Shown in pieces: positions 19,852-48,826 of a stretch of DNA of 64,000 nt (the stretch's first letter is position 1; every line of letters starts with the position of its first letter). Below the pieces are notes generated by a model, which was not told the origin of the DNA, did no database searches, and saw only the letters and a list, made by a program, of their open reading frames with translations. Made by a program: the position numbers and the translations under genes. This stretch comes from a virus, in IMG/VR virus record IMGVR_UViG_3300014050_000006, positions 1 to 64,000 of that record. One strand, 5' to 3'.

Positions 19852-20616
19852 ATGGAAGTATTACCAGTTTTTAAGTCTCATTATAGTATAGGCAGATCAA
19901 TTCTTACTTTAGAAGATGAAGATATTTCTGAAAATGATCCAGATTCAATTATTGACATAGCTAAAAAGAATAACATAAAAGATTTATTTTTAATTGAAGA
20001 TAATATGTCTTCTTTTCTTCAAGCGTATACTAATTCCAAAAAAAATAATATTAATTTAAGATATGGATTAAGATTATCAATTAATGACAATATAGAAGAT
20101 AAAACAGAAGAATCAAGGAGTAAAACATCAAAAATAGTTATATTTTTTAAAACTAATGAAGGTTATACTAGACTTATTAAAATCTTCACAGAAGCAGCGA
20201 AAAATGGATTTTATTATGAACCAAGAATTGATTACAAAACATTAGAAAAAATGTGGTCAGATAATGATTTGATGCTTTGTGTTCCATTTTATGATTCTTT
20301 TATTTTCAACAATACTTTAAAAAATTCTATTTGTATTCCAAATTTCAACTTTACTAAACCAGTAATGCTTTTAGAAAATAATTGTCTTCCTTTTAATTCT
20401 CTTATAAAAGAAAAAGTAATTAAATATGCCGAGGCAAACAAATTAGAAGTTTTAAATGTTAAAAGTATTTATTATAAAACAAAGAAAGATTTTAAATCTT
20501 ATCTTACTTTTAGATGCATTAATAATAGAACAACCTTAAATAAGCCAGAACTAAATCATATGAGCAGCGATGAATTTTGTTTTGATTCTTGGAAAGAACA
20601 AGTAAATGTTAATTAA
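19852..20616 (+). CDS. stand-alone PHP domain of DNA polymerase III alpha
   Basis: SHYS, K.NEGY..LIKI...A...GFYYEPRID..L: DnaE N-terminal PHP features with the metal His residues largely lost. Confidence 0.8.
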   Translation: MEVLPVFKSHYSIGRSILTLEDEDISENDPDSIIDIAKKNNIKDLFLIEDNMSSFLQAYTNSKKNNINLRYGLRLSINDNIEDKTEESRSKTSKIVIFFKTNEGYTRLIKIFTEAAKNGFYYEPRIDYKTLEKMWSDNDLMLCVPFYDSFIFNNTLKNSICIPNFNFTKPVMLLENNCLPFNSLIKEKVIKYAEANKLEVLNVKSIYYKTKKDFKSYLTFRCINNRTTLNKPELNHMSSDEFCFDSWKEQVNVN

Positions 20617-21079
20617 AAAATTAACTATTAATGGCACTAAAGCTATCCAAAGAGAAGATCGAGAGGATAGGCTTAGAGATTATAAACAATGGATTTATGA
20701 TCAACCTAAACTATATGCATCTGATATTGACCAAATTGAATGGGGCTACCAAAATGGCGAAGAAGAACCAGTAGCAGTTCTTGAATTAACGAGAATTGAT
20801 AGAGAATTTAGACCCTCAGATAAATATTTTGAAGCAATTATTCATAGATTTTTTGTTAGAGATACTCAAGCCAGAAGAATTATAAAAGTTGCAAAAAGAT
20901 TAGGAGTCGAAGCATATATTGTTGCTTTTTTACAAGATCTTTCTGGATTTTCTATGTATAATCTTTGCAAACAAGATGGATGGAAGCATATTTCTCCACA
21001 AGAATATTTAAATTGGCATTATCAAATAAGAGGATTAAATGGATTTATTAAAACAAATACAGATCCATTTTTAGATTAA
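20606..21079 (+). CDS. hypothetical protein, possibly degenerate PD-(D/E)XK fold
   Basis: SDID.IEW.....PVAVLEL, Q......A..LGV.AYIV. Confidence 0.55.
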   Translation: MLIKKLTINGTKAIQREDREDRLRDYKQWIYDQPKLYASDIDQIEWGYQNGEEEPVAVLELTRIDREFRPSDKYFEAIIHRFFVRDTQARRIIKVAKRLGVEAYIVAFLQDLSGFSMYNLCKQDGWKHISPQEYLNWHYQIRGLNGFIKTNTDPFLD

Positions 21080-32729: not shown

Positions 32730-32754
32730 CCTTATACCTTCATATATATTACAC
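32730..32754 (-). promoter_or_regulatory. GTGTAA motif plus AGG-N4-AGG leader
   Basis: GTGTAA-9nt-AGGtataAGG-aaa-ATG. Confidence 0.65.
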
Positions 32755-33579
32755 TATATATTCGATTAAATTTTTGTATATATTAATATTTATATTCTTA
32801 ATATTAAATAAAACTTTTTGTTGGATATCATAATCATTTTTAGTTTTAGCTAAATGAATATAAAAATTGTTTTTTTCATTTATATTTTTTATAATATATT
32901 TAGAATTCAAATTATGATATTCTGCATAAAATTTAAGAAATAATTGTTCAGGAATAACAGGCATACAAAAAGAATATTTTATATTTTTTAAATATTTCAT
33001 ATCATATTTTTTTCTTAAAAACTCATATATTAAAATAGATTTTTCAGCATAATCTTTAGCTATTTTTGGATCTTTAAAACCTAAAATACCACAATTATAA
33101 GATTTTTCATTTTCTGCGCCAAATCTTAATTCATTATTTAAAAAAAGTTTATCAATTAAAAAATCCCATTCTGGTATTATTTTTAAAGGAATAATATCTT
33201 TGAAAACATACATTAATTTTATATACCATTTATTTTCTTTCAATATTTCTTGATTTTGATAAATTAAATCATTTTTTATTAAATTTTTAGTTACATCTTC
33301 CAATAAAAAAGTATCTAAATCTATAATTATTTGTTTTTTTTCATTTTTTAAAACTTGCATTTTACAGCAACTCCAATAATAATCATAATAATGATTATGC
33401 TCTATTTCGTTAAAAGAATCATAATTTAGTCCAATATTTTTACAAATATTTATATATTCTTTTGTTGAATAAAGATTAATTTTAAAATCTTGTTTTTTTA
33501 AACAAAGAAAAGATAAAACTTGGGGTATTAAATATTTTTGATTATTTGATAATGGTAAAAAAGTATGAGTAAACTCCAT
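32749..33579 (-). CDS. GT-A fold nucleotide-sugar transferase (DUF6734-like)
   Basis: W...K, IDLD (DxD), YNCGILG, EQ.FL, YIHL; TAATG-coupled to the upstream Ser/Pro-rich gene. Confidence 0.7.
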   Translation of the reverse strand: MEFTHTFLPLSNNQKYLIPQVLSFLCLKKQDFKINLYSTKEYINICKNIGLNYDSFNEIEHNHYYDYYWSCCKMQVLKNEKKQIIIDLDTFLLEDVTKNLIKNDLIYQNQEILKENKWYIKLMYVFKDIIPLKIIPEWDFLIDKLFLNNELRFGAENEKSYNCGILGFKDPKIAKDYAEKSILIYEFLRKKYDMKYLKNIKYSFCMPVIPEQLFLKFYAEYHNLNSKYIIKNINEKNNFYIHLAKTKNDYDIQQKVLFNIKNININIYKNLIEYIV

Positions 33580-35087
33580 TATTCGTTTATTTCTTTAATT
33601 TTATTAATAGTTTCTTGTATTTTTATATCTTTTAAATTTTGCAAATTTAAATGATCCATATTTTGAATATCTTCTATTGGAATATCTAATAGTGAACTTA
33701 ATAAGTCTAAATTAACAACTGCTGAAACGCTATATGGATCACTACTACTACTACTGCTGCTTGGACAATCTTTAATATTATATACATAATATTCATAATG
33801 AAAATTTCTGGGATATGGTCTAGTGACTATGCAGGGACAATCAACTGTTTTAGTACCAAGTGCTTGACATGGACCAAGTTCTGGAGTCCCTTCTGAATAA
33901 TGTGGTGGACATTGACTTGGATCTTCAACTATTGCAGAACATGGAGGTTCGATTGGATCGAATATATGAATATTCGTACACGAACCAAGAGTTTGATCAC
34001 GACATGGTGGATTCCAATTGCAAGCCCAAGTTGTTGATTTTCTGCAAACACCCTCATCTGGTACTGGTTCTGATGGTTGAGGTCTACATTCTGCGCATCT
34101 TTTGTCTCTATTACAAACAAGATAACAGAAACAACAACCATTCCTACATCTAGGATCAGGATGCCATTCACAATCATCACAACATTGTTCATTTTGCCTA
34201 CAAACATCACATGGAACTTTTCCACCAGGACAAGTATTACAATCAGGTGGTGGTGCGCTAGGTGGTGGTGGTGGAGGAGAAGGAGGAGGTGGAGGAGGTG
34301 AAGGAGAAGGACTTGGCGAAGGAGAAGGACTTGGCGAAGGAGAAGGACTTGGAGAAGGAGAAGGACTAGGTCCAGGAATCGATGAAGAACTAGATGAAGA
34401 ACTAGATGAAGAAGGAGGTGGAGGAGGTGGTGGAGGTGGTGGAGGAGGTGGTGGCGGTGGCGGGGGAGCTGGAGAAGGGGAGGGACCTGGAGATGATGAT
34501 GAAGAACTACCTGAAGAAGAAGAAGAAGAAGAAGAACTGCCTGAAGAAGAGCTACTTGATGAAGAAGATTTATCGCAACTCCAACATGGAATTCCAATTC
34601 CAAGATTAATTTTATTTAAAGTATAACCCAATGGACATGTTACTTCTATTGAAAAAAATCCAAAATCTTCACATTTTAAACTTGATGAAGATGATGAAGA
34701 TAATGGATCACATTTATAACAATTTAAATCGTTGATTCTTATAGGAGTAATTTGAAAATTAGTTCCACAATTAATATTTGGATCAGAAGAATAAAAATAA
34801 TCTTCACAGGTTGGTTTAACTGGTAAATCCCAAACGTATATATTAATGAAACTAGTTGAAACTCTATTTTCTCTATCATAAAAATAAATATATTGAGGAT
34901 GCCAGCCTAATTGAGGAATATATCCTGTTATACGATTATCCTTAGTTAATCCAAGAGTATTATGAGATAATATACTATTTGTATATATAAAATCCCCAAA
35001 ACTTTGTACTTGATAATCTATATAATAATTAGAATAAGTACTTATTACATCATTTTTACTATATAGAATATCATCTAAACTTTTCAT
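33579..35087 (-). CDS. Ser/Pro-rich, Cys-rich putative virion glycoprotein
   Basis: Two C-E-D...C..C repeats, poly-Ser, poly-Pro, (SP)n, Cys-rich domain; C-terminal tail shared with 45506..48826. Confidence 0.75.
   Translation of the reverse strand: MKSLDDILYSKNDVISTYSNYYIDYQVQSFGDFIYTNSILSHNTLGLTKDNRITGYIPQLGWHPQYIYFYDRENRVSTSFINIYVWDLPVKPTCEDYFYSSDPNINCGTNFQITPIRINDLNCYKCDPLSSSSSSSLKCEDFGFFSIEVTCPLGYTLNKINLGIGIPCWSCDKSSSSSSSSSGSSSSSSSSSGSSSSSSPGPSPSPAPPPPPPPPPPPPPPPPPPSSSSSSSSSSSIPGPSPSPSPSPSPSPSPSPSPSPSPSPPPPPPSPPPPPPSAPPPDCNTCPGGKVPCDVCRQNEQCCDDCEWHPDPRCRNGCCFCYLVCNRDKRCAECRPQPSEPVPDEGVCRKSTTWACNWNPPCRDQTLGSCTNIHIFDPIEPPCSAIVEDPSQCPPHYSEGTPELGPCQALGTKTVDCPCIVTRPYPRNFHYEYYVYNIKDCPSSSSSSSDPYSVSAVVNLDLLSSLLDIPIEDIQNMDHLNLQNLKDIKIQETINKIKEINE
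34246..34570. repeat. low-complexity coding repeats including an 18-nt tandem unit
   Basis: GAAGGAGAAGGACTTGGC x4 (34300-34371, last two degenerate); GGT/GGA and GAA triplet runs encoding Pro and Ser on the - strand. Confidence 0.9.
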
Positions 35088-35119
35088 TAATATATTATAT
35101 TGTTTTTATGTCATTATGT

Positions 35120-38100
35120 TTAAGATAAATAATCATAATATCCTATTCTAAATCTATTAATTTCTTCGGTTATTATTTGTGTATCAGCTTTTTTCTCTGT
35201 TTCTGGTTCTCCACTAGCTACCCCAGTTCCACCACCATCAAGACCACTTGGTATTGGATCACAAGAAAAATTAAATACTTGATAATCTATAAAACCAGTT
35301 CCACAAACTATTCCACTACCAGTAGGATTTCGAAGACACATTGTTGTTCCAGTTCCAGATTTTAAATTTCCACTAGATAATTGATTTAATAGATCTTCTA
35401 AATTTTCTTCTTTTTCTACTTTTTTATTTTCTAATTCAGATGAAATTGGTATTTCTCTTGTTGCAGTATATTTTACATTTTCAAGTGAGTCATATGGGAT
35501 ATTTGTTGGTGCACTTGAATTTGGACTTTTAATATAAGTATTAATCGGTTGTAAATTTTGAGAGTTTGTAATTCCTGTCCAATTTATATAATCATCTGAA
35601 ATCTCAAGTTTAATAATTTTAGGCACAAGATAATTGTAAAATTGTAATCTAGATTCTAAATTTAATTTTATGTCATGACTACCAAATTTTCCACTTCTTA
35701 ATGAAATTAAATTAATAATACTGTTTCCGCTTTCATCAAATCCACCATCTATTCCAGTTAATAATGGTCCATATTCATATTGTATATTTTTATTATATTT
35801 TAATGGTTTCCAACTATATAAACCAGAAGATGCAAATTTATAATTAATATTATCAATTAAATCTTGTTTTGTTCTAAAATAATTATATCCAGTTATTTTT
35901 GTAGAATAAATAAATTCTGTAGTATATTCTTTCACAGGTGGTCTAACGCCATACAATGATGTAATTACTTTTTCATAATCAAATGGATATTGTTTAAATA
36001 TTATTTTATCTCCATCATAAAAACTATTCACAGCAATTTGACCAGAATAATAATTAAAATTATATTTTAATTTAACATTTAATGGGTTTAAATCATCTAA
36101 GAAAAATACTCCAGAATAAATTGAATCTCCACTATTAGGAGTTGGAGGAAGGCTTAAATTAAAATTAATTGCTCCAACTAAATCTTGTCCACAATTATCT
36201 TTACAATAACAACACAAAGTATTTAAATTTTCATCTATTGCAACTCTATATGTATTTACGCTTGGAGATGGATAGAAATTTAAGTATTCAGAAAAAATAA
36301 CTGGTGGTAAATATTTTTTTGGTATATCTATATAAGTCTCATTGGCCTTTAGTCTTTTTTGAGCTTCTTGACAAATTGTGCAAAATGCAGTACTACATGC
36401 CGCAGCTTTACCTTTAACAACAGTAATCGTTGGAATACAAATACTTGAATATTTTCCACTTATTTCTTTATAAAATAAAGATGGACTATCTACTGTACCA
36501 CTAAGAGATCTTTCAAAATCAATATTAAATGCTAAAGGATTTTCATTATTTAAATTATTAAATCCAGATCCAGAAATCAATTCTTTTGGACCCATTTCAT
36601 ATGTTGCCCAAATTTTATCTTGATTTTCTATATAAATTTCTTTTAATTTTTCTCCTGTTATAAAATTAACTTCTAAAGAAAGTAAATGAATATTTTGATT
36701 TTTGCCATTTAAACTATTCTCTGTATATAAGAAATCATTTTCATTTCCAGAAAGTATAGTTGTATAAATTCCAGGTTCTAGGAAATATAAAAATCCAGTC
36801 TGTGTACCAGTTATATAATTTCCATTTTGTAAATATTTATTATTACTATTAAATATTGAAAAGTTATATTCACCTAAATTATAAGTTAAATTATCATTTA
36901 TACTTTTGTATTGAAACAAACATGGAAGAGCTATATTTTTATTATTAGACAATAATGGTGGATCAATTATAACTTTATTTTTTATAAATTTATATTTATC
37001 ATTGATAGAAGAACTTGTGTTAGCGTAATACGAACTATCATAATTTATAAAATTATCTACTTTAAAGTTTTGTAATATTCTTTTTTGAGAAAGATATTCG
37101 TTAATATTATCTATAATTCCAATTGGTTTTGTTTGATCTAAAATTTCTATATTCAATATAGTAGGATTTTTTGGTATATTTTGAAAATATCCTGTTCGTA
37201 AAATAACAGAATTTAATTCAATATCGCAATCTTCTATATTATCTTCCTCAAAACCATAAAGATTAAGATCTAATAAAAGAATATGCTGTTCTCCACTTGG
37301 TGGTAAAAATTGTTGATAATAAGTATCAATTGAATTTTGTCTATATGTCTTAGGTTTATAATTAATATAATTATTTTTATCAAATGCAATTTCTGTATCA
37401 ACTTTTGGTAAACCAAATAAACCAGTATTATATTCATAAGGTTCTTTTCCAAGAAATAATCCAGTATAAATTTCTCCTAAATATCCTCTCAATGGTATGA
37501 AAGAAATATCATTTAATATATTATAACCATTTAAATTAACATAAGCAGCACCAGAAACAGGAAGATTAATATATTTTTCTATATATTGATTTCTATTAAG
37601 TTGACCAGTTATATAATTAAATATTCCTGTATCAAAAAATGGCTTTAATCTTTTATTAGTTGTTTGTATTCCATTCAGTAAAAATAAACTAGTATTAAAT
37701 TCAAATTTACTTTGATCATTTTCTTCTGAAAAAAAAGATATTTGTCCGTAACTATTATCACCCCATCCTGTTATAGTACCATTTTTTAACAAAACTACAC
37801 TGAAATTACCTCCAGCGCTAATTCCACTAGCATTATTTCCTATATTTTCTGGAACATTAATTTGCCCAGTATGATTATATCCCCATCCAGTGACTCTTCC
37901 ATTATTTAATAAAGCTAATGAATGATAAATGCCAGCGCTTATTCCAGTAGCATCATTTCCTATACCAGAAGGAATAGTAATTTGGCCAAGGGTATTATCT
38001 CCCCATCCAGTAACTCTTCCATCGTTTAATAATGCTAGACTAAAATTACCTCCAGCACTTACATCAACAGCATTATTTCCTATATCTATCGGAACATTAG

Positions 38101-38554
38101 TTTGATTAAAAGTATTATCTCCCCAAGCAACAATACTGCCATCATTTAATAATGCAAGAGAATGCCTATATCCAGCACTTATTTTTGTAGCATTATTAAT
38201 TATGCTAATTGGAATATCAATTTGTCCAGAATTATTATATCCAAATCCAGTAACATTTCCATTATTTAATATAATTAAAGAATGTCCATATCCAGCATCT
38301 ATTTTAATTCCACTTGTATTTGTTGGTATATTTATTTGACCATAATCACTGAATCCCCATCCAGTAACTGTTCCATTTTTTAATAATCCAAGATTATGAT
38401 TAAATCCAGCAGAAATTCCAGTTACTTGAACTAATTTTAATGCATCATATATTTGATTATAAGTGTCATCTCCCCATCCAGTTATCTTATTAGTATTTAA
38501 TAATGCTAATGTATGACGAAGTCCTGCACTTATTGATTTTACATTAGTTATCAT
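35120..38554 (-). CDS. RCC1-repeat beta-propeller tail protein
   Basis: About seven ISAG..HSLALL.NG.VTGWG.N..GQ repeats at the N-terminus (about 37740-38554). Confidence 0.8.
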   Translation of the reverse strand: MITNVKSISAGLRHTLALLNTNKITGWGDDTYNQIYDALKLVQVTGISAGFNHNLGLLKNGTVTGWGFSDYGQINIPTNTSGIKIDAGYGHSLIILNNGNVTGFGYNNSGQIDIPISIINNATKISAGYRHSLALLNDGSIVAWGDNTFNQTNVPIDIGNNAVDVSAGGNFSLALLNDGRVTGWGDNTLGQITIPSGIGNDATGISAGIYHSLALLNNGRVTGWGYNHTGQINVPENIGNNASGISAGGNFSVVLLKNGTITGWGDNSYGQISFFSEENDQSKFEFNTSLFLLNGIQTTNKRLKPFFDTGIFNYITGQLNRNQYIEKYINLPVSGAAYVNLNGYNILNDISFIPLRGYLGEIYTGLFLGKEPYEYNTGLFGLPKVDTEIAFDKNNYINYKPKTYRQNSIDTYYQQFLPPSGEQHILLLDLNLYGFEEDNIEDCDIELNSVILRTGYFQNIPKNPTILNIEILDQTKPIGIIDNINEYLSQKRILQNFKVDNFINYDSSYYANTSSSINDKYKFIKNKVIIDPPLLSNNKNIALPCLFQYKSINDNLTYNLGEYNFSIFNSNNKYLQNGNYITGTQTGFLYFLEPGIYTTILSGNENDFLYTENSLNGKNQNIHLLSLEVNFITGEKLKEIYIENQDKIWATYEMGPKELISGSGFNNLNNENPLAFNIDFERSLSGTVDSPSLFYKEISGKYSSICIPTITVVKGKAAACSTAFCTICQEAQKRLKANETYIDIPKKYLPPVIFSEYLNFYPSPSVNTYRVAIDENLNTLCCYCKDNCGQDLVGAINFNLSLPPTPNSGDSIYSGVFFLDDLNPLNVKLKYNFNYYSGQIAVNSFYDGDKIIFKQYPFDYEKVITSLYGVRPPVKEYTTEFIYSTKITGYNYFRTKQDLIDNINYKFASSGLYSWKPLKYNKNIQYEYGPLLTGIDGGFDESGNSIINLISLRSGKFGSHDIKLNLESRLQFYNYLVPKIIKLEISDDYINWTGITNSQNLQPINTYIKSPNSSAPTNIPYDSLENVKYTATREIPISSELENKKVEKEENLEDLLNQLSSGNLKSGTGTTMCLRNPTGSGIVCGTGFIDYQVFNFSCDPIPSGLDGGGTGVASGEPETEKKADTQIITEEINRFRIGYYDYLS

Positions 38555-39915
38555 TATATTTTCCTTTGTATAGTATATGAAGTATCAGTATAAAAACTTT
38601 TTTCATATTTTATATTAGATATTTTATCAAAAGATATAAAATCATTAGTTTTTATATCTCCACTAGTTATAGTCAATAATGGATTACTAAAATTATTATT
38701 TATAATTTTTAATGGATTATAATAAATTTCTAAAACTCCACTATAAATATTTCCTTCGCCAGTAGTTAAATTTATTTTTTCGACACAGCCTTCACAACCA
38801 GAAAGTTGATATCCATGTTGATAATAACTTTTAAGATTTGAATCAAAATTATCTAAACTTCCAGAGTCTTGAAATGAAAGATCTCCAATTAAATAGTACA
38901 GAGTATGAAGATTAGACCAATCATTTGAATAGATTGGATTTTTTGTATATCTTAATTCATTTCCAAAATAATTTAATATAAAATTTGAATCAATTAAAGC
39001 TCCATTACCACCTGTTGATTTGATTAAATTAATAGTTAAAGTATCTTTTCTTCTATATAAAGAAGAACTGAATGAAGTATTATTACCTGGAGTAGATATT
39101 ATTCCATAAATTCCAGTAGTTAATAATGCATAAGAATTTCCCGTTGGTAAAAATTTTCCATCTAAAAGATTATCTGGAAGATAATATTTATTTCCATCAT
39201 GATATGCGCCAAAGCAAAAAAGTTTTATATTGTGTTTTAAATAATATTCAGTTGAAGTTAATTTAATTGGCGCACCAAAAAATTCTCCACTTTCGTTACC
39301 ATAATAAAGAGTATTTGTTTCTTTATAAGATTTTGGTATAGAAACAGTAACGTATCTATCAACTCCAGCTGTACCACTTATCGATACATATTTTTCTAAT
39401 TTTTTGTTACCATATTCATCAATATAAATATTTAATGGATTGCCACTGTTTGAAATTCCTGTTTGAACAAATTGATATGTTTTGCCTTTTTCAAAATAAA
39501 GATTTGGCGCTTCAAGATTATTAATATAATAACAATGATAATCTTTTATTATCGCTTCATCTCCAACTTTAATTATAGATGTATTAGTTATTTGAGGATA
39601 TATAATAGAATTTTCTGGTATTGGATAATCATCTGCATTTATTGAGAAATCATCTTTTATCCATGTATTATTATCCATTACAATTCCACTATAATTTCCT
39701 CCAGTTGTACCTTGATAGAATATGGTTATTGATTCATAACTAAAAGCTGCAAATTGATTTGGATCAAATACATAACTAATTTTATTAATTGGCGATGATT
39801 TAAATAAATAATATCCATTAGCTGTTTTTAATCCAGTTAAACTAGATCCCAGATCATAATTTACATTAGATATATTTTTATACCCAACATTTACATTATA
39901 GATTTTATCTACCAT
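38554..39915 (-). CDS. putative tail protein with cupredoxin-like phage module
   Basis: APNLYFEKGKTYQF.Q...SNSGNPL....TLYY......G pattern seen in phage tail proteins. Confidence 0.6.
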   Translation of the reverse strand: MVDKIYNVNVGYKNISNVNYDLGSSLTGLKTANGYYLFKSSPINKISYVFDPNQFAAFSYESITIFYQGTTGGNYSGIVMDNNTWIKDDFSINADDYPIPENSIIYPQITNTSIIKVGDEAIIKDYHCYYINNLEAPNLYFEKGKTYQFVQTGISNSGNPLNIYIDEYGNKKLEKYVSISGTAGVDRYVTVSIPKSYKETNTLYYGNESGEFFGAPIKLTSTEYYLKHNIKLFCFGAYHDGNKYYLPDNLLDGKFLPTGNSYALLTTGIYGIISTPGNNTSFSSSLYRRKDTLTINLIKSTGGNGALIDSNFILNYFGNELRYTKNPIYSNDWSNLHTLYYLIGDLSFQDSGSLDNFDSNLKSYYQHGYQLSGCEGCVEKINLTTGEGNIYSGVLEIYYNPLKIINNNFSNPLLTITSGDIKTNDFISFDKISNIKYEKSFYTDTSYTIQRKI

Positions 39916-39918
39916 TTT

Positions 39919-39943
39919 CCTTGTTCCTATTAATAAATTACAC
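39919..39943 (-). promoter_or_regulatory. GTGTAA motif plus AGG-N4-AGG leader
   Basis: GTGTAA-9nt-AGGaacaAGG-aaa-ATG. Confidence 0.65.
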
Positions 39944-42900
39944 TATAAATTAAGATCAGCACAAACAGTGTTTTTTACTAAATTATATAAAGCAAGATGT
40001 TCTTCATTAGATAATACTTTAGAAAAAGCCCCTGCAAAACTATAATATCCTTGACTTTTTGTACCATCATTATTTATAAAGTCTGTAGTTCCGTTTATAA
40101 AACCACTATGCATATCACATGGATAACCTAAATAACCAGTATAACATAATACTGGCAAGTTAACTCCTCCAGAAGCTGTATTAACCAAATTATATCCATT
40201 TTTATAAATATTTAAAGAACCACTTCCAGAATATGAAGCAATTGGTAAATAATTTACATTATAAGAAATCATATCATATTGATTTGTTGTATTTAATATT
40301 GGAGAAGAAGTATAACTAATTGATTTATCATTTGGAGGATTCCATTGTCCACCATATTGAATTTCATTACTATAATAATAAGCATTTGGCTGTAACCAAA
40401 TTGATCTATCACTTCCAGCACGAGAAGATTGTAACCACCAAGCTCCAAAATTTTGTTTATCAGTTTTTGCTAACATTGAAATTGTAAAATTTCCATTGAA
40501 TAATGGCAAAACTGGATGAGATATTGTTGCTTTTCCACTACTTGACCATACATAATTTCCAACATATCCACTTCTTAAAAATATTCCACTTGATGTCCAA
40601 GAAGCTTGTCCACTATTTAATAGTGTTCCATCGTATCCAGTTTTTAATCCATAAATTTTTGTTCCTGCAACTGAATTGTATCCAGAATTTAATAAATAAA
40701 CATTAATAACATTATTCCATAAATTAAGATTTTTTAATCCAGTTATAAAACTATTTATTTTATTTTGAACTGAAAAGTCAGATATATTACTTCTAATAAA
40801 GTATTTTCTAGCATCTTTATCAAAATCAGCTAATCCTAATCTTTCTAATGGATTATATTTAATGAATCCTATATTAATAGGATAATTTACTTTATATATG
40901 TATTTTTTATTTGGATTATAACATATTAATTTTAAAGTTTTTTCGCAAATAACATCATTTTCTTTTATTTGAACTTTAACATTATATGTTCCTTCGTCTT
41001 GTAAATAGCCTTGGATATATTTTCCATTTGGATTATAATAAATATTATTTGGTAAATTAGATACAGATAGTATTTGTGGATTTCTTACTTTTATTACTTG
41101 AAAACTTTTTTGAATAGAGCTTGAATAATAATGATCCGTTTCGGGTTGATAAGCAGTAATAAAACCACTGCCAGTATTATTTATAATTAATTTATTTGAA
41201 CCAGAAATTGAAATAACTCCAGTATTAGAACTTGTATATTCTATACCAGACTCATTATGATTACTAGTACCATTTAAAGTATAGCTAAAACCAGAATTAT
41301 TATTAATATTAAAAACTGGAATATTTTCTAGATTTATCTGAGAATAAGCTTTATCTACTGTAAGTGATATTGTACCTGTAGCAGGATATAAAAAAGAAGA
41401 TTCACTTGCTATTCCAGTAAGAATAGTAGTACCAATTTCAACCGCTGTAATATTATTTTTATTAATTGAAAGTAAATTAGATCCATTATAATATTCTATA
41501 ACATTTCCTTGATCTGAAAATAAAGGTAATGTTAGATTCTCTTTATATCTTAAAAATAAAGGTGAAGGTAAATTAAAATTTTGTGTTGGATTTGGTAATG
41601 AAAAATTTTCTGTTGATAATGGATCTGAAGTTTGATTGTTTTTAAGAACTGTTAGATAACTTACTCCAGTTACTGGATTATAATTAACAGTACCTTGATT
41701 TATTCCAGTTATTATAACATTTCCAGTTTTATTTAAAAAAAGTCGAAAACCAGCAATTGATGCGATAGATTGATCACTAGTAGTATATTCTAATGTTTGA
41801 CCTTCGGGTGTACCTACAGGTAAATCAATTGTTGTATAAGGATATCCAGTTAAATAAGTATTGAAATTACTTGTACTTTGATTAGCTTTATTTATCGTTA
41901 TAAAAATACCAGTATTTGAATCTGCTGGTTCATAAATATTATTTCCATTTTGTTTAGCATAAATATATCCACTACCTGCATAAGTTATTGTAACATAACC
42001 ACTACCTGCATAATCGTAAATTAATGGTTTGACAGAATAATAAGAAACTTGAAGTCCAGCATCACTAGTAATTCCTGGATTAAATGGAGCGTCTCCATAA
42101 GTTTTATTTAAAGTTATATTTGGTACTATTAAATTTTGCTGTAAACCAGTAATATTTATATTTACAAATGTAGATTTTGGATTATAATTTCCACTTTTGG
42201 GAGCAGTAATAATTATATTTGCATTACCACGGTTTCCAACAATATGGACTAACCCATTTTGATCTACTGTTGCCACTCCAGTATTAGTTGTTGAATAAAT
42301 TAATTGATTATTTGTATCAACTGAAGCATTTAAATTAAAATCTGGACTATAAATACCTGTTGAAAATGCATAACTTGGTATAGAAATGTCTTGGTCGAAT
42401 AAGCTATAAATAATATTTAATTTTACTATAGTAGGATTAGTATAGCATATATTTGGGCTATCAGGGTTGGATAAAGTTTTTAAAATGCCTCCATGATTTC
42501 CTTTTGAATAACCTATTAAACCATAACTGCGTGCACCAGAAGGATTAGACATTTCTACTATATTATTAGTAATATTTAAATGGTTTGGACCAAGATTTAA
42601 AATACTATCATCAATAATAAGCCATTGAATTGGTTCATCAGGTATGTAATAAGGAGCAAATCCAGGTCTTTGATATGGTAATTTTCTTTTAAAATGAGTT
42701 GGTAATTGATATGTTTCTCCTATTTTTAAACGGATGGAACCCGATTGTCGATATTGAATAGGATATTCTCCAAAAGTTGATGTATAATAACCTGATAAAG
42801 GATCATAACCAACATAATCTCTATGATAACCATCAAACCGATACGTATATTGTTCTCCGTCTACAGGAAGAATATTTTTAGTTCTTGAAAGTATAATATT

Positions 42901-43320
42901 ATTAGTAATAAAATCATATTTTATCCCAGTTCTCAATTTATATTCATTTAATGAATCATTTCTTGTAGTATTTTCATTAAAACCATTAGGAAAACCAGTT
43001 AATGGATAAAGTTGCCATTCAAGAATTTTTTTATAATCGAAATATTTTTCTCCATCTAAATTAACTACCATTTTTGGTGGTACAAATTTTGAAGGATTAG
43101 GAAAATATCTATCTATAAATTGTTGTGGTAACTTTAATATACTAGCTATATTACTATCATTATAACGAAATTTTTTCCCCCAATAGTAAGTACTAAAATA
43201 AGAATTTAAATTTGGATGTGTGCGAAGATCATCATCAATTACAAGCCCACTTACATATTTCCATTTATCATAAGCAGAACTATTTCCTGTACGAATATAA
43301 GTAGTAATATAATCACCCAT
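39943..43320 (-). CDS. Ig-like (Big_2-type) repeat tail protein with C-terminal LamG-like domain
   Basis: Repeated Y.S.N..VA.V....G...ITA.Q.G..NY.P units; C-terminal D.DA..Y....I......IN.F..GLK...LW module. Confidence 0.7.
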   Translation of the reverse strand: MGDYITTYIRTGNSSAYDKWKYVSGLVIDDDLRTHPNLNSYFSTYYWGKKFRYNDSNIASILKLPQQFIDRYFPNPSKFVPPKMVVNLDGEKYFDYKKILEWQLYPLTGFPNGFNENTTRNDSLNEYKLRTGIKYDFITNNIILSRTKNILPVDGEQYTYRFDGYHRDYVGYDPLSGYYTSTFGEYPIQYRQSGSIRLKIGETYQLPTHFKRKLPYQRPGFAPYYIPDEPIQWLIIDDSILNLGPNHLNITNNIVEMSNPSGARSYGLIGYSKGNHGGILKTLSNPDSPNICYTNPTIVKLNIIYSLFDQDISIPSYAFSTGIYSPDFNLNASVDTNNQLIYSTTNTGVATVDQNGLVHIVGNRGNANIIITAPKSGNYNPKSTFVNINITGLQQNLIVPNITLNKTYGDAPFNPGITSDAGLQVSYYSVKPLIYDYAGSGYVTITYAGSGYIYAKQNGNNIYEPADSNTGIFITINKANQSTSNFNTYLTGYPYTTIDLPVGTPEGQTLEYTTSDQSIASIAGFRLFLNKTGNVIITGINQGTVNYNPVTGVSYLTVLKNNQTSDPLSTENFSLPNPTQNFNLPSPLFLRYKENLTLPLFSDQGNVIEYYNGSNLLSINKNNITAVEIGTTILTGIASESSFLYPATGTISLTVDKAYSQINLENIPVFNINNNSGFSYTLNGTSNHNESGIEYTSSNTGVISISGSNKLIINNTGSGFITAYQPETDHYYSSSIQKSFQVIKVRNPQILSVSNLPNNIYYNPNGKYIQGYLQDEGTYNVKVQIKENDVICEKTLKLICYNPNKKYIYKVNYPINIGFIKYNPLERLGLADFDKDARKYFIRSNISDFSVQNKINSFITGLKNLNLWNNVINVYLLNSGYNSVAGTKIYGLKTGYDGTLLNSGQASWTSSGIFLRSGYVGNYVWSSSGKATISHPVLPLFNGNFTISMLAKTDKQNFGAWWLQSSRAGSDRSIWLQPNAYYYSNEIQYGGQWNPPNDKSISYTSSPILNTTNQYDMISYNVNYLPIASYSGSGSLNIYKNGYNLVNTASGGVNLPVLCYTGYLGYPCDMHSGFINGTTDFINNDGTKSQGYYSFAGAFSKVLSNEEHLALYNLVKNTVCADLNL

Positions 43321-43326
43321 AAATCT

Positions 43327-43476
43327 TTACCCGTTATAAAATCCACTTACGATAGCATTTAAATCTATAAATATTTTATCATTACTACCCGTTGGTAATT
43401 TATATTCTAAACCAGTAATAAAAGATGGTAATCCATGACAAGATATATCATTAAATTCAAAATAATCATTACTCAT
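43327..43476 (-). CDS. 49-aa protein (not in ORF track)
   Basis: MSNDYFEFNDISCHGLPSFITGLEYKLPTGSNDKIFIDLNAIVSGFYNG*; preceded by GTGTAA and an AGG-N4-AGG leader; has the TG/SG bias of its neighbours. Confidence 0.7.
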   Translation of the reverse strand: MSNDYFEFNDISCHGLPSFITGLEYKLPTGSNDKIFIDLNAIVSGFYNG

Positions 43477-43482
43477 ATTTTA

Positions 43483-43530
43483 CCTTTATCCTTTAGTATA
43501 GAATCTTTATAGATTCTAACTAATTTACAC
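43483..43530 (-). promoter_or_regulatory. GTGTAA motif, hairpin and AGG-N4-AGG leader
   Basis: GTGTAA (43525-43530), perfect 8-bp inverted repeat 43499-43518, AGGataaAGG (43483-43492). Confidence 0.6.
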
Positions 43531-43546
43531 TAGAATATGATATATT

Positions 43547-43972
43547 TTAAAGGAAAAATATGGCCCACGAATCACCATCAGCTGCAACAGAAAAATGGCG
43601 ATATACAAATTTATTAGAAATTGTATGTTTAAAAAATTCTTGAAAAGCTTGATCATTTTTAGGTATTCTAAAAATTTGACCTGAAACAGGAGTTGTTTTA
43701 TATTCATTTTCTATAGATTCTAAATCTACTTTAATTTGTGGATTTTGCTCTAAGAAATGTAAAACAAAATTTTTTGTACTTTCAAGGTTATCTCTTGCAT
43801 ACATTTGAATTGCTGATCTACAAGAACAATTTGGATTTTTACTATATGTTTCTATTTTGTCTACTATTGATGGAGCAAATTCTTTAAAAGACTTGATAAA
43901 TAATACATCGTTTCGTATCAACCATAAAACTACTTGATCAAAATAGCTATTAAAAATTGGATTATCTTTCAT
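43547..43972 (-). CDS. hypothetical protein with NPNCSC motif
   Basis: 141 aa; own TATAAT 7 nt upstream (43980-43985); composition unlike the flanking tail genes. Confidence 0.65.
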   Translation of the reverse strand: MKDNPIFNSYFDQVVLWLIRNDVLFIKSFKEFAPSIVDKIETYSKNPNCSCRSAIQMYARDNLESTKNFVLHFLEQNPQIKVDLESIENEYKTTPVSGQIFRIPKNDQAFQEFFKHTISNKFVYRHFSVAADGDSWAIFFL

Positions 43973-44010
43973 ATATAGTATTATATATAGATATTTTAAA
44001 AAGTCTAAAA

Positions 44011-45519
44011 TTAATAATTATTAATATCAATTCCAGAATAATAAGAGTAAGATTTGCCAAATGCATAAGTTTTTAATTCTAAATTTATTAAATTATTCAT
44101 ATGTTTTATATTTTTTAAATTAATACTTTTATAATATGCTCTCCCTAAACTATTAGCATTATAAATATCATTGTATATTTTTATTCCATTACAATATATC
44201 TTAAATATATCATATATTGGATTACAATTATTATTTTTTATAGATATATAAATTTGTGCAGAAAATTGATTCAAATTATTAAAATAACCAGTTTTTATCT
44301 CAAAATAAGGAACTATTCCACAGCAATCAGAGCATGTATAATATTGATCGCAATAACAATTTGTGCCAGATATATTATATTCATTTATTGCATAATATTC
44401 TTGAAATTGATTCCAAGGTCTTTCATATATATAAGCTGCGCCTTTTCTGTATTCGGCATCATATACGCCTATTAAAAGTTTATTATAATTACTATCAACA
44501 ACAAAATTATTTCCAAAATTTTCACTTGAATAAAAATTTGGATTTTTTATATTTATATTTTCATACCAATTATTTCCATTTTTTCTATAATTATGTATTG
44601 TCCCATTATGATTATTTTCTGAAGCAAAAATAAAATTTCCACTTTCATTTATGAATAAACATTTTCCTAAATGATTTGTATTTCCAGTTATTAAATATTC
44701 ATTTTCCCAAGAAGTATTATTTTTTTTATAAATATAAACTGCGCCAGAATTTGAAAAACTATTTGGTTCACCAGCTAAGATATAATTTCCAGTTTGATTT
44801 ATATAAAAATTTTCTCCGAAAAGAGAATTATAATGACTACCAGTTAATTTTTGAGATTGAACCCAATTATTATTATCTCCAGTATAAATAAATATTGCGC
44901 CAGTATTATTATTCAAAAAAGAACCAATTAAAATTACATCTCCACTATTAATTGCTACTTTAGCGCCATAAAAAGTTCTATATCTATTACCCGAAAGAAT
45001 CACTCCATCATTTTCAGTAAAAGTGGTCGCAAGATTCCAATTATTTGCATTTCCAGTATATAAATATGCTTTACCACTAGAAGAATTTTCGATATTCGTA
45101 CCAATTACTATTTTATCTCCTTTTTTATTTAAAGCTATATTATATCCAAAAGATTCTTTACCAGAAATATTTCCACTAATTTCATAAGATTTATTCCAAT
45201 TTTTACCATCTCCAGTAAAAATATAAACTATTCCATCTAAACGATTTTTTCCTGGTGAACTTACTGCTAATATATTTCCATCATCATTTGATGCAATTGA
45301 AAAACCAAAATTTTCATACGCATGTGGATTGTATGAATTAATTTTACATAATTCATTCCAATTCCATTCTGTATCGTATTGTTTATAAACATAAACTATG
45401 CCAGTATTATTATAAACAGGCGCGCTTACAAAAACAAGATTTTCATCAGTAACTGCAATACCTTGTCCAAAAAAAATTCCACTTAAAGTTTTATCAAAAT
45501 TTAATTTATTTGTTTTCAT
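44011..45519 (-). CDS. FG-GAP repeat beta-propeller protein
   Basis: Repeated FG..IA....G..L.V.....G.VYIF.....W. Confidence 0.8.
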   Translation of the reverse strand: MKTNKLNFDKTLSGIFFGQGIAVTDENLVFVSAPVYNNTGIVYVYKQYDTEWNWNELCKINSYNPHAYENFGFSIASNDDGNILAVSSPGKNRLDGIVYIFTGDGKNWNKSYEISGNISGKESFGYNIALNKKGDKIVIGTNIENSSSGKAYLYTGNANNWNLATTFTENDGVILSGNRYRTFYGAKVAINSGDVILIGSFLNNNTGAIFIYTGDNNNWVQSQKLTGSHYNSLFGENFYINQTGNYILAGEPNSFSNSGAVYIYKKNNTSWENEYLITGNTNHLGKCLFINESGNFIFASENNHNGTIHNYRKNGNNWYENINIKNPNFYSSENFGNNFVVDSNYNKLLIGVYDAEYRKGAAYIYERPWNQFQEYYAINEYNISGTNCYCDQYYTCSDCCGIVPYFEIKTGYFNNLNQFSAQIYISIKNNNCNPIYDIFKIYCNGIKIYNDIYNANSLGRAYYKSINLKNIKHMNNLINLELKTYAFGKSYSYYSGIDINNY

Positions 45520-48500
45520 TTATATTTTTAATTTGTTTAATTGTTTCTTCAGTTTTTTCTTCTACTAAATTTTCTAAATTTAGATAATCCATATTTTTGA
45601 TATCTTGAATTGGTATTTCTAATAATGAACTTAATAAGTCTAAATTAATAACTGCTGAAACAGTATAGCTACTACTACTAGAATCACCACGACATGCACA
45701 TTTATTACATGTAAGCGTGGTTCCAGCATTGGCGCATTCAGGACCTTCAACTGGAACAGAAAAATATTTTCTATATGGTTGTTGTCCAGGAGGACAATCG
45801 CATTCAGTATTTAAAACAAATGGATAGCCCATATCTGCACAATCACAAAATCTTACACATTTTTCGCATTTATATGATTCAAGAGCGCAAAAGCCATAAT
45901 TAGGTTTTGGCACTACAATGCTTTCACAACTCCAAGAAAATACATCTGTTCTTGAATTACCATATTTTTCTTCACATATAAATGGATCACAATAACTTGA
46001 TGATCCAACGCCTCCATCATAATCAGCACACGCATTACATGGGCCTGGACCTGGACCTGGAGGTGGACCTGGAGGTGGAGCAGGAGAAGGGGAAGGAGAA
46101 GGAGAAGGACTTGGTCCTGGAGAAGAGGAAGAACTAGAAGAAGAAATTATAACAACAACAAGATTTTCGCAAGTTGTTCCATAAGTATTTGATGCGCAAA
46201 TTTGTATATTAAAATTTCCAGGAATTAATGGTGTTCCAGAAATAACGCATCCATTTGATACTAATCCAGGAGGTAAATTTTTTACACTACAAGAATCATA
46301 AAGTCCAGAAGCAGTAATAGTATAATCAATTAATGTTTCTATATCTTGTGCAACATATAATGGACTTGTGATAATTGGAAGTGGTATTGGACAATATGGT
46401 AATTTTTTTAAGCTTTGCATTAAATTTATTGGCGCATTTACAACTGGAGAAATATTATTATCTCCAAAAATTCCATTTCCAATTTGAGAAGCTTTTGCAT
46501 ATAAAGTTTTTAATTCTTTTTCATTATAAAAAAAGTTTTTCTTATCAATTTCATCATTTAGTTCTTTATCTAAATAAATAAAATTAAATGAAATATTCTG
46601 ATTAGAAGAATATGTAGCTATTTTATTCAAAAAACCTGAATATTTTATTTCTATTGGATTTGTAAAATATGGATCTAATAAATCACAATCATTTGCATCA
46701 GATTCTATATAAGGAAAATTATTAGTAATAATATTTATTATTTTCTTTTTATTGTAATTTGAATTCCATGATAAATTATAAATTGCATAATCTATTGCAT
46801 CATTTAAAGCAACGCCTTCTTTTGTCTTTTCTAAAGGTTCTAATACTTTAGTTGAATTTATAAAATCTGTAAAATTAGTAGTAAATTGTAAACCTGTAAT
46901 ATTTAGACTATCAAGAAAATATACGTTTGCAATTTCATTAAATTTTGAATTTTTATTTAAAAAATCTTTAAATAGAATAGAATTAGATTTGAATAAAGCC
47001 AATCCAGATCTGTTGCTATAAGATAAGTCTATAATATTTGCAAGTTGTATCCCTGAGTTACATAAACTTGGAAAAGAGATATTAGTATCATTATAAATAC
47101 TTTTTACTTTAATTTGATAATTTCCAGAATTAAATAAGCCAGAATATGTTTTTATAGTTGCATTATTATAAGATAAAAAATTACTTTCATAAATTGGTAA
47201 ATATCCACTTATTTCTCCACTTTTATAAAGAATAAATTTATGTTTTGTATTATAAGGAGATGAAAAATTTTCTTCACCTTTCAAATTAATTAAAAAATTA
47301 CTTGAATTTTTTGTTGGACAAAGTAGATCTACGGGTTTATTTCCAAAAATTAAATTTTGAGATGGAGAAGTATCAGAATATTGAATATTAGAATCTGAAA
47401 ATATATAAACTGCTCCTTTATTATCGTAACCATCTCCAATTGCACCTATAACAGCTATATTACCAGCATTATTTAAATCTATACTAAAACCAAAATTATC
47501 TCCATAATCAAAATCACCATCACCTGTTATTTTTTTATTTAATATCCAAGAGCCATTATTTTCAAAAAGATAAACTGCTCCAGCTAAATTTCCGTTTTCA
47601 TTATTCTGGTTATAAGAACTAACTAAACTTACATTTCCTTCTCCATTTAAAGTCACTTTATTTCCAAAATTTTCGTACCCTTGGGCTTCTCCTGTGAATT
47701 TTTTAGATAAAATATAATTTAAATTATTTCCAGTAAATAAATATGCTGCACCAGATCCCAAATCGCTATTTAATGATCCAATTAAAAGTTTATCTCCAGA
47801 ATTATTTAAATCTAAATCAATACCAAAATTTATAACTTTATTATCTCCAGTAATTTGTTTTAATATATAATTTAAAGTTCCAGCACTAAATTCATCTGGT
47901 GTTCCTTGCGCTAATCCAATTTTCCATCCAGTAAAAGGTAAAATATTTATATCTGAACTATCATTATAAAATTCAGGAGAGTCATTAGCTTCTAATTCCC
48001 ATCTATTATTTAATAAAGAAAAATAAATCCAACTATTTAAAGATTCGTGTTTATATCCAGTAGTAGCAAATGTTGAAAAAGGCGATATGTTTTGATATAT
48101 ATATTTTCCATTTATATCTTCTGAATTATCAGTCAATTCAAATCCATTCAGAGAAATTTCTTGTGGAATTTTCCAATCTAATACATAAACTTTTCCAGAG
48201 TTTTGATTTTCATATGGAGCACCAAAAGCTAAAATATTTCCAGATTCATTTAAACTTATACTATTAGGATAATTAATGGTATTTGGCGTTCCAGTAATTA
48301 TAGAATTTAATTTCCAATCAGATATATCTTTTTTATATATGTAAACTTGTCCAGAATTTAAATTCCCTCGTGAACCCACAGCAATAATATCACCCGAATA
48401 ATTAATATCTAAACTTTGACCAAAATATTCATAATTTCTATTAATACCTGTTAATTCTTGAAACAAAGACCAATTAGTATTATTTTTTACATAAATATAT

Positions 48501-48826
48501 GCTGAACCATTTAATATTTTTTCATTTAAACCTGTTTTAGCTGGTGAGCTAGCAACTATAATATTACCAAGCCCATTTAATTTAGCGCTATATCCAAAAA
48601 GTCCTATATTTGAATCATCTATATTTTGTCCAGTTAATTTTTGAGTTAAAAACCAGCCTTTATTATTTTGATTTAACCCTCCACTTTCATAAACATAAAC
48701 TCCAGAACCATAAGTTCCAACAATTAAAGTATTTCCAAAAGAATCTAGCGATGAATTAAAACCAAATTTTTGCGTTAATGTATTATTTTCGCTAAATTTT
48801 TGATTAAAATATATTGGTAATCCCAT
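45506..48826 (-). CDS. FG-GAP propeller + vWA + Ig + Ser/Pro hinge + Cys-rich protein
   Basis: FG-GAP repeats; MIDAS-like IDLSYS; LPPGL...ISGTP...G Ig motif; SSSSSSSPGPSPSP...; shared C-terminal tail. Confidence 0.8.
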   Translation of the reverse strand: MGLPIYFNQKFSENNTLTQKFGFNSSLDSFGNTLIVGTYGSGVYVYESGGLNQNNKGWFLTQKLTGQNIDDSNIGLFGYSAKLNGLGNIIVASSPAKTGLNEKILNGSAYIYVKNNTNWSLFQELTGINRNYEYFGQSLDINYSGDIIAVGSRGNLNSGQVYIYKKDISDWKLNSIITGTPNTINYPNSISLNESGNILAFGAPYENQNSGKVYVLDWKIPQEISLNGFELTDNSEDINGKYIYQNISPFSTFATTGYKHESLNSWIYFSLLNNRWELEANDSPEFYNDSSDINILPFTGWKIGLAQGTPDEFSAGTLNYILKQITGDNKVINFGIDLDLNNSGDKLLIGSLNSDLGSGAAYLFTGNNLNYILSKKFTGEAQGYENFGNKVTLNGEGNVSLVSSYNQNNENGNLAGAVYLFENNGSWILNKKITGDGDFDYGDNFGFSIDLNNAGNIAVIGAIGDGYDNKGAVYIFSDSNIQYSDTSPSQNLIFGNKPVDLLCPTKNSSNFLINLKGEENFSSPYNTKHKFILYKSGEISGYLPIYESNFLSYNNATIKTYSGLFNSGNYQIKVKSIYNDTNISFPSLCNSGIQLANIIDLSYSNRSGLALFKSNSILFKDFLNKNSKFNEIANVYFLDSLNITGLQFTTNFTDFINSTKVLEPLEKTKEGVALNDAIDYAIYNLSWNSNYNKKKIINIITNNFPYIESDANDCDLLDPYFTNPIEIKYSGFLNKIATYSSNQNISFNFIYLDKELNDEIDKKNFFYNEKELKTLYAKASQIGNGIFGDNNISPVVNAPINLMQSLKKLPYCPIPLPIITSPLYVAQDIETLIDYTITASGLYDSCSVKNLPPGLVSNGCVISGTPLIPGNFNIQICASNTYGTTCENLVVVIISSSSSSSSPGPSPSPSPSPSPAPPPGPPPGPGPGPCNACADYDGGVGSSSYCDPFICEEKYGNSRTDVFSWSCESIVVPKPNYGFCALESYKCEKCVRFCDCADMGYPFVLNTECDCPPGQQPYRKYFSVPVEGPECANAGTTLTCNKCACRGDSSSSSYTVSAVINLDLLSSLLEIPIQDIKNMDYLNLENLVEEKTEETIKQIKNINENK

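Follow-up and report, generated by a model that had tools for sequence, protein, structure and literature searches.

A conserved C-terminal tail shared by two unrelated proteins of a freshwater phage follows cysteine-rich domains that appear to be exchanged

The 64,000-nucleotide stretch analyzed here (the window; positions 1 to 64,000 of the IMG/VR virus record IMGVR_UViG_3300014050_000006, hereafter G000) encodes two otherwise unrelated proteins, A and B, that end in the same arrangement: a Ser/Pro hinge, a cysteine (Cys)-rich core domain, or knob, and a conserved tail of about 50 residues. Comparison with close relatives shows the knob to be the exchangeable part of this arrangement. It has been replaced wholesale at the same locus, with break-points in the low-complexity DNA of the hinge and at the start of the tail. 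One knob family occurs in both genes, and even where the knob type is kept, as in gene B, the knob evolves at several times the rate of the remaining protein.

A common C-terminal end in unrelated proteins

Genes A (33579-35087, minus strand; 502 amino acids) and B (45506-48826, minus strand; 1106 amino acids) have the open reading frames and C-termini quoted in the original prediction, which held that two unrelated proteins share one end. BLASTP bears this out, since only the last 62 residues of the two proteins align, with 40 of 62 identical (65%, E 4e-19). The similarity had also been described at the DNA level, where we find a repeat (33582-33774 and 45515-45707, repeat family D5) with 76% identity over 193 nucleotides; the 22-mer quoted for it is present exactly and twice in the window (33694-33715 and 45627-45648), against an expectation of 0 from 100 shuffles. 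The translations confirm that the hinge elements follow the same order in both proteins, namely a Ser run, PGPSPSP and a Pro-rich run with a terminal CNxC, and that the Cys-rich cores between hinge and tail differ as had been claimed, the A and B cores being unrelated in Smith-Waterman comparison with shuffles (z = -1.5). Across the whole 112.8-kb record the tail is found in genes A and B only, and the same two genes are the only ones to combine a Ser/Pro hinge with a Cys-dense domain. Neither a Pfam scan (E <= 0.01) nor PHROG yielded a family for A or B outside the FG-GAP region, and both the cores and the tail went unmatched.

In protein A, the low-complexity hinge (poly-S, P18 and (SP)n) takes up residues 174-281 (34245-34568, minus strand) and forms the 5' boundary of the replaced segment. 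The segment itself is the core, of a type that we call A1 (residues 282-441; 33765-34244, minus strand), with 24 Cys when counted over residues 282-453. It is followed by a Ser-rich pre-tail linker that varies in length and sequence among relatives (residues 442-453; 33729-33764, minus strand), and by the conserved, acidic and predictedly helical tail (residues 454-502; 33582-33728, minus strand). In protein B, a shorter Ser/Pro hinge whose DNA resembles that of the A hinge (residues 895-929; 46040-46144, minus strand; repeat family D1) precedes a core of type B with 16 Cys (residues 930-1046; 45689-46039, minus strand), and the tail occupies residues 1056-1106 (45509-45661, minus strand).

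Replacement of the core between constant flanks

The A locus is syntenic in G000 and in two further tail-bearing IMG/VR records recovered with a wider profile, G001 (77.8 kb) and G002 (46.8 kb): in all three, a gene for an RCC1 protein is followed by A, by a gene of 276 or 277 amino acids and then by genes of 557, 222 and about 448 amino acids. Within this conserved setting the three genomes carry different cores. The A1 core of G000 matches that of P0004, a cluster representative from metagenomic sequence (z 36.6, 56% identity). The core of G001, type A2, aligns weakly to A1 (z 4.3-5.4, with some Cys in register), and that of G002 belongs to the B family, all cores of which it matches at z of 15-16.5. 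Protein A of G002 aligns with residues 903-1104 of the B protein P0002 (52% identity, E 2e-35), and all 16 Cys of the type B core are invariant in four sequences that include it. A fourth type (z <= 1.7 to all others) is found in the A gene of G003 (85.3 kb), a more distant relative recovered through the N-terminal domain of A, in which the C-terminus is different and the tail is missing.

Nucleotide comparison of the A locus in G000, G001 and G002 (blastn) delimits the exchanged segment on both sides. Homology is unbroken up to the hinge, is reduced to low-complexity matches within it and is lost over the roughly 500 nucleotides of the core, only to return at the Ser linker or at the start of the tail, from where it continues at 83-89% identity into the downstream gene. 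A similar picture emerges at the protein level from P0004, which combines an A1-like core with a tail that does not differ at any of 52 residues from the tail of P0009, the A2-bearing protein of G001. As other A tails differ pairwise by 16-20%, this identity is best read as the signature of a recent core replacement. The layout, a non-homologous segment between conserved flanks, is the one generally seen where homologous recombination exchanges modules of mosaic phage tail fibres. The three cores at one syntenic locus, the loss of homology between hinge and tail and the P0004 mosaic all support the original proposal, in which recombination swaps a core that lies between constant flanks.

The B locus, on the other hand, keeps its core type. 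Its core retains only 46-55% identity among B orthologues, compared with 81-82% for the 400 amino acids upstream, and its rate of non-synonymous substitution (dN) is 0.40-0.52, compared with 0.10-0.11 upstream. When G000 is compared with L003, a metagenome contig from JGI, the DNA ceases to align in the second half of the core and aligns again from the start of the tail.

A diversity-generating retroelement was considered as a source of this variation. The 112.8-kb record, estimated to be 74% complete, contains no match to RVT_1, and neither core has a template-like repeat in the window. In the absence of a reverse transcriptase and of a template repeat, such an element does not seem to be the cause; the cores, moreover, differ wholesale and not at scattered sites.

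Assemblies break at 34257-34316 and 34403-34543, in the A hinge, and at 46034-46163. At window position 34380, also in the A hinge, contigs of two freshwater runs carry a 12-nucleotide insertion that adds four Ser codons. Together, the breaks and the insertion point to variation in hinge length or to difficulty of assembly.

Distribution of the tail

A profile built from the two tails was scored exhaustively against all 1.84 billion cluster representatives, and only three of them belong to tail-bearing clusters. Two of the clusters, P0003 (which also holds a longer member, P0006) and P0004, consist of fragments comprising core and tail, and the third, P0005, is a fragment of 51 amino acids. 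Beyond these clusters, the tail occurs in G001, in G002 and, among the matches listed, in L003; the profile found none in the cultured-phage collection and none in the GTDB species genomes. A Cys-rich core directly precedes the tail in every instance except the short P0005, and every full-length tail-bearing protein has the Ser/Pro hinge, as would be expected if the tail always followed a hinge and a Cys-rich domain. Hence the tail is real and recurrent, yet in the collections searched it is confined to one small clade of freshwater phages. It is not limited to the two genes of G000, and its cores are not invariant among relatives: the tail occurs in related genomes, and the cores in front of it differ.

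The tail as a selected and probably autonomous peptide

Among A orthologues the tails are 80-84% identical, and their differences are mainly silent: the proportion of synonymous differences (pS) is 0.42-0.48 and that of non-synonymous differences (pN) is 0.07-0.09, with a ratio of non-synonymous to synonymous rates (dN/dS) of 0.11-0.16. Between A and B tails the ratio is 0.18-0.44. This purifying selection at the amino-acid level argues that the tail acts as a protein and not only as a homology arm, and the finding that synonymous sites have changed while amino acids have been kept argues against a signal embedded in the DNA or RNA as the cause of its conservation. A separate test of RNA folding in this region gave an ordinary result (z -0.89) and thus lends no support to a structured RNA.

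In every genome the A tails end in ..INE and the B tails in ..NENK, and the conservation of each subtype across genomes indicates that the two copies are old paralogues. All tails are acidic (isoelectric point 4.1-4.6; 4.5 for the A tail) and share invariant positions (VSA, L-D-x-L, LL and N-L). The linkers that join them to the cores are very different in length and sequence, and in G002 an A-type tail stands next to a B-type core. Given these variable linkers, the unrelated cores and the separate helical prediction described below, the tail is better seen as an autonomous module than as a cap specific to a given knob. The other original suggestion, a C-terminal tag for recognition or assembly, would be compatible with a tail that works as a peptide.

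The first 26 residues of the G000 B tail (45509-45586, minus strand) are closer to A tails (21 of 26 amino acids, 88% of nucleotides) than to those of B orthologues (16 of 26 amino acids, 74-76% of nucleotides), and the second half of the tail has no such bias. Partial conversion of B by A may have taken place here, although the signal is not significant (Fisher p = 0.12).

Predicted structures

AlphaFold2 (AF2) models the tail as three helices at low confidence, separated from the core by a disordered linker. The type B core is predicted with a local confidence (predicted local distance difference test, pLDDT) of 71-88, and the model of the A-type core with its tail is unusable (pLDDT 37.7). 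Fold searches with the B-type core model gave no significant match, and none by VIA-align with a Z of 5 or more. Foldseek places cystine-knot proteins at the head of its list, but with E-values of at least 0.57 and template modelling (TM) scores between 0.12 and 0.27. Searches with the tail, by profile in the PDB and in the Atlas, returned noise or generic helical hairpins only. A complex prediction with three copies of the tail, run without controls, scored 0.00 and speaks neither for nor against oligomerisation.

Source genome and genomic setting

The 112,811-bp record G000 has a GC content of about 26% and carries the gene set of a tailed phage, including a DnaE-type polymerase, a DnaB helicase, a primase, a UvsX-like recombinase and a large terminase. 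It comes from freshwater metagenomes, and contigs from freshwater runs match the window. No near relative was found among cultured phages, the identity of its large terminase (TerL) being at most 25%. Genes A and B sit downstream of the tape measure gene, in the neighbourhood of large RCC1, FG-GAP and Big_2 proteins that have weak PHROG matches to tail and tail-fibre families. The original description of A and B as tail proteins holds to the extent that they follow the tape measure and have weakly tail-like neighbours; position is the sole basis of the label.

Conservation of this genome with respect to G001 and G002 is markedly uneven. Proteins of replication and nucleotide metabolism (window 2242-29025) are 93-98% identical, while those of the tail-fibre block (window 29031-64000) are only 49-88% identical. 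By these protein identities, the divergence of the three genomes is strongly mosaic within what appears to be one phage lineage.

A proposed role and its alternatives

The reading that we favour, and consider reasonably probable, is that of a swappable knob on a Ser/Pro stalk, with the tail acting both as a docking or assembly module and, through its DNA, as a 3' homology arm. A and B would each present a three-part display unit made of an extended Ser/Pro stalk, a Cys-rich knob of 120-180 amino acids and a short Ser linker with an acidic tail of about 50 amino acids. The knob would be the host-facing specificity domain. This role is suggested by the hypervariability of the knob, by its location in the tail-fibre block and by the fact that this block is only 49-88% identical in genome pairs whose replication genes are 93-98% identical. 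The tail, in turn, might be a constant docking or assembly module for a common partner, or might bind to itself. At the DNA level, the tail would provide the 3' homology arm that eases knob exchange, and the repetitive hinge DNA would provide the 5' arm. A bolder form of this proposal, which we regard as doubtful, is that the tail represents a small docking domain not described before, through which the distal end of any disulfide-rich knob could be mounted on a shared socket, or by which the ends of A and B could be paired. If true, such a docking tail would give the lineage plug-and-play adhesins on polyproline stalks, with knob folds for which there is no solved counterpart.

Several points weigh against the favoured reading. 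The docking role of the tail and receptor or host binding by the knob are both only what we infer, and attachment by the C-terminus would be unusual, phage fibres being normally anchored by the N-terminus. The material consists of four related contigs and some fragments, all of them metagenome assemblies, and as these assemblies break in the hinge, the joins between hinge and core rest on single assemblies. The P0004 mosaic is seen at the protein level only. The B-type core of G002 is about 43-50% identical to known B cores, which implies either an old transfer or an unsampled donor. Finally, A1 and A2 may be very distant homologues, given their z of 4.3-5.4 and several aligned Cys; if they are, the pair could represent extreme divergence and not replacement.

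An alternative that we hold to be rather unlikely, though one to be weighed, is that the tail is a C-terminal oligomerisation nucleus in the manner of the T4 fibritin foldon. It would align three (or two) chains for the assembly of stalks and knobs, and might also link A to B at their distal ends. The position of the tail at the extreme C-terminus, its amphipathic helices with invariant Leu/Ile positions, its occurrence with unrelated knobs and the purifying selection on it all accord with such a role, and the low confidence of the AF2 monomer would fit a peptide that folds on association. The tail, however, shows no relation in sequence or fold to known trimerisation domains, and a flexible stalk that bears a globular, disulfide-rich knob has no need of a trimer as such. 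Less probable still is a function as a recognition tag that recruits an enzyme or a chaperone to A and B. The foremost candidate for the recruited protein is the translationally coupled, DUF6734-like product of the 276-amino-acid gene; a glycosyltransferase that modifies the Ser-rich hinges is another. The 276-amino-acid gene (32749-33579, minus strand) follows A in G000, G001 and G002 and begins at the A stop codon in all three; in the window its start overlaps that codon (TAATG). It is absent from G003, which lacks the tail as well, and it and 20606-21079 (plus strand) are the sole G000 genes, within the stretch covered by G003, that have no G003 counterpart. Several glycosyltransferases are also encoded nearby. 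Against this stand the facts that the association relies on one phylogenetic contrast, that the other tail-bearing gene, B, lies 12 kb away beside a different gene, and that the 276-amino-acid protein has no Pfam match even at E <= 1, its likeness to DUF6734 being a lead from Atlas features and structure only (feature score 0.97, TM 0.85). We regard it as a possible functional partner of the tail, on a single and weak contrast.

It is harder still to maintain that the shared end arose recently by duplication or gene conversion within the genome, or is a DNA element without a role, and that the differing cores are chimeras assembled across the hinges. Assemblies do break in the hinges, and the first half of the G000 B tail, nearer to A tails by 21 to 16 of 26 amino acids, hints at conversion, but this signal falls short of significance (Fisher p as above), and the ..INE and ..NENK subtypes are each conserved across genomes, so that the duplication must be old. 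The low dN/dS, with its many synonymous changes, argues in addition for a peptide function. As to chimeras, a second misjoin would be required within the tail, and there the match of 22 nucleotides is the only long stretch that A and B have in common; moreover, the A2 join between core and tail is found in independent contigs from JGI, ENA and IMG/VR. Assembly chimera is thus unlikely as a general explanation, and this set of proposals as a whole is largely refuted and very improbable.

Relation to known systems

A swappable knob between constant flanks finds its closest parallel in the distal adhesins gp37/gp38 of T-even phages, in which hypervariable segments lie between conserved glycine-rich motifs and are shuffled by recombination (PMC3157838). 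In both cases constant elements flank hyperplastic specificity segments, exchange takes place in or next to conserved motifs and a small conserved motif stands at the extreme C-terminus. The differences are nonetheless considerable. There is no sequence relation to gp38, the cores described here are Cys-rich and not Gly-rich, and the proteins do not fall within the gp38 family. What is replaced here is a whole Cys-rich domain of 120-180 amino acids instead of short loops; this domain is bordered on its 5' side by a low-complexity Ser/Pro stalk and on its 3' side by a separate module with predicted helices; and the same unit is found on two unrelated proteins.

Multi-tailspike phages (K1-5-like, G7C-like and CBA120-like) carry conserved N-terminal adapter domains on different tailspikes. 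As in A and B, unrelated receptor-binding bodies are combined there with one conserved short module, thought to plug into a common site, but those anchors are N-terminal and have solved folds, whereas the present module is C-terminal and distal to a flexible stalk. The T4 fibritin foldon and Peptidase_S74 resemble the tail in being C-terminal elements that stay constant across different fibre bodies. The foldon, however, is a beta-hairpin propeller of 27 amino acids that forms trimers, and the tail comprises about 50 amino acids with a predicted helical fold (AF2, low confidence). Peptidase_S74 (PF13884), a domain of about 110-150 amino acids with a Ser-Lys cleavage dyad, was rejected as a candidate, as the tail has no Pfam match at E <= 0.01 and is only 49-51 amino acids long.

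A further likeness is to cellulosomal dockerins and to the docking domains of polyketide synthases and non-ribosomal peptide synthetases, in which a Ser/Pro-rich linker, a globular module and a small terminal domain mediating assembly are also combined. A dockerin proper (PF00404; two Ca-binding, EF-hand-like repeats) was set aside, since there is no Pfam match and no loop of the D-x-N-x-D-G type in the tail alignment; the fold list contains only one docking-domain structure, at a Z of 3.7 that is within the noise. As for the knobs, disulfide networks have been documented in the virions of other phages (PMC10811340), which makes Cys-rich external domains plausible; the Cys of the present knobs may form disulfides or bind metal.

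Knob exchange as described here fits the well-known mosaicism of tail fibres. The architecture that supports it is unusual, cleanly bounded and common to two unrelated proteins, and it occurs in an uncultured lineage. Phages change their host range mainly by exchanging receptor-binding modules, and the examples that are understood come mostly from a few groups of cultured coliphages. The present cassette adds to them a cleanly delimited case with natural break-points, in a freshwater lineage without a cultured relative. With a stalk on one side, a selected module of 50 amino acids on the other and two unrelated proteins served, it offers a defined natural scaffold on which to study swaps of specificity domains. 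It also contributes several new families of Cys-rich domains and one new small C-terminal module, the function of which can be tested with recombinant protein and without need of the host.

Other features of the two genes

Upstream of the hinge, the A gene, which has orthologues in G001, G002 and G003, encodes a conserved N-terminal domain (residues 1-173; 34569-35087, minus strand) with two four-Cys mini-modules and a poly-Ser run between them. This domain is 65-91% identical among relatives, and 65% identical over 175 amino acids in G001, with 73% identity and a dN/dS of 0.40 over residues 1-128. The mini-modules (residues ~93-173; 34569-34810, minus strand) are two copies of a unit of about 35 amino acids with the pattern C-E-D-aromatic ... 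C ... C-x-x-C, joined by a poly-Ser or (PS)n linker of 7 to about 27 amino acids. They are kept in G001, G002 and G003 and give the protein a beads-on-a-string layout ahead of its main hinge.

Before its own hinge, protein B comprises an FG-GAP propeller region (Pfam FG-GAP_2, E 1.8e-18), a middle domain and an Ig-like segment, and its gene has orthologues in L003 and G001. In G003 the counterpart (L013:1471-2436) is a stand-alone protein of 321 amino acids that matches only residues ~498-813 of B and is devoid of FG-GAP region, hinge, knob and tail. As this counterpart amounts to the middle region alone, these other parts look as if they had been gained by fusion in gene B of the close clade. 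The G001 gene (L012:847-3900) encodes 1017 amino acids, compared with 1106 in G000, and its match skips G000 residues ~222-318, in the FG-GAP region, which suggests that propeller blades are gained and lost between relatives. Lastly, one low-depth X1 contig fuses the end of the 698-amino-acid gene to the start of the 502-amino-acid FG-GAP gene (window 45518 and 48895), with 36 other letters in between. This joint, on a single contig placed at 80% likeness, would mean that a relative without gene B co-occurs with the phage.

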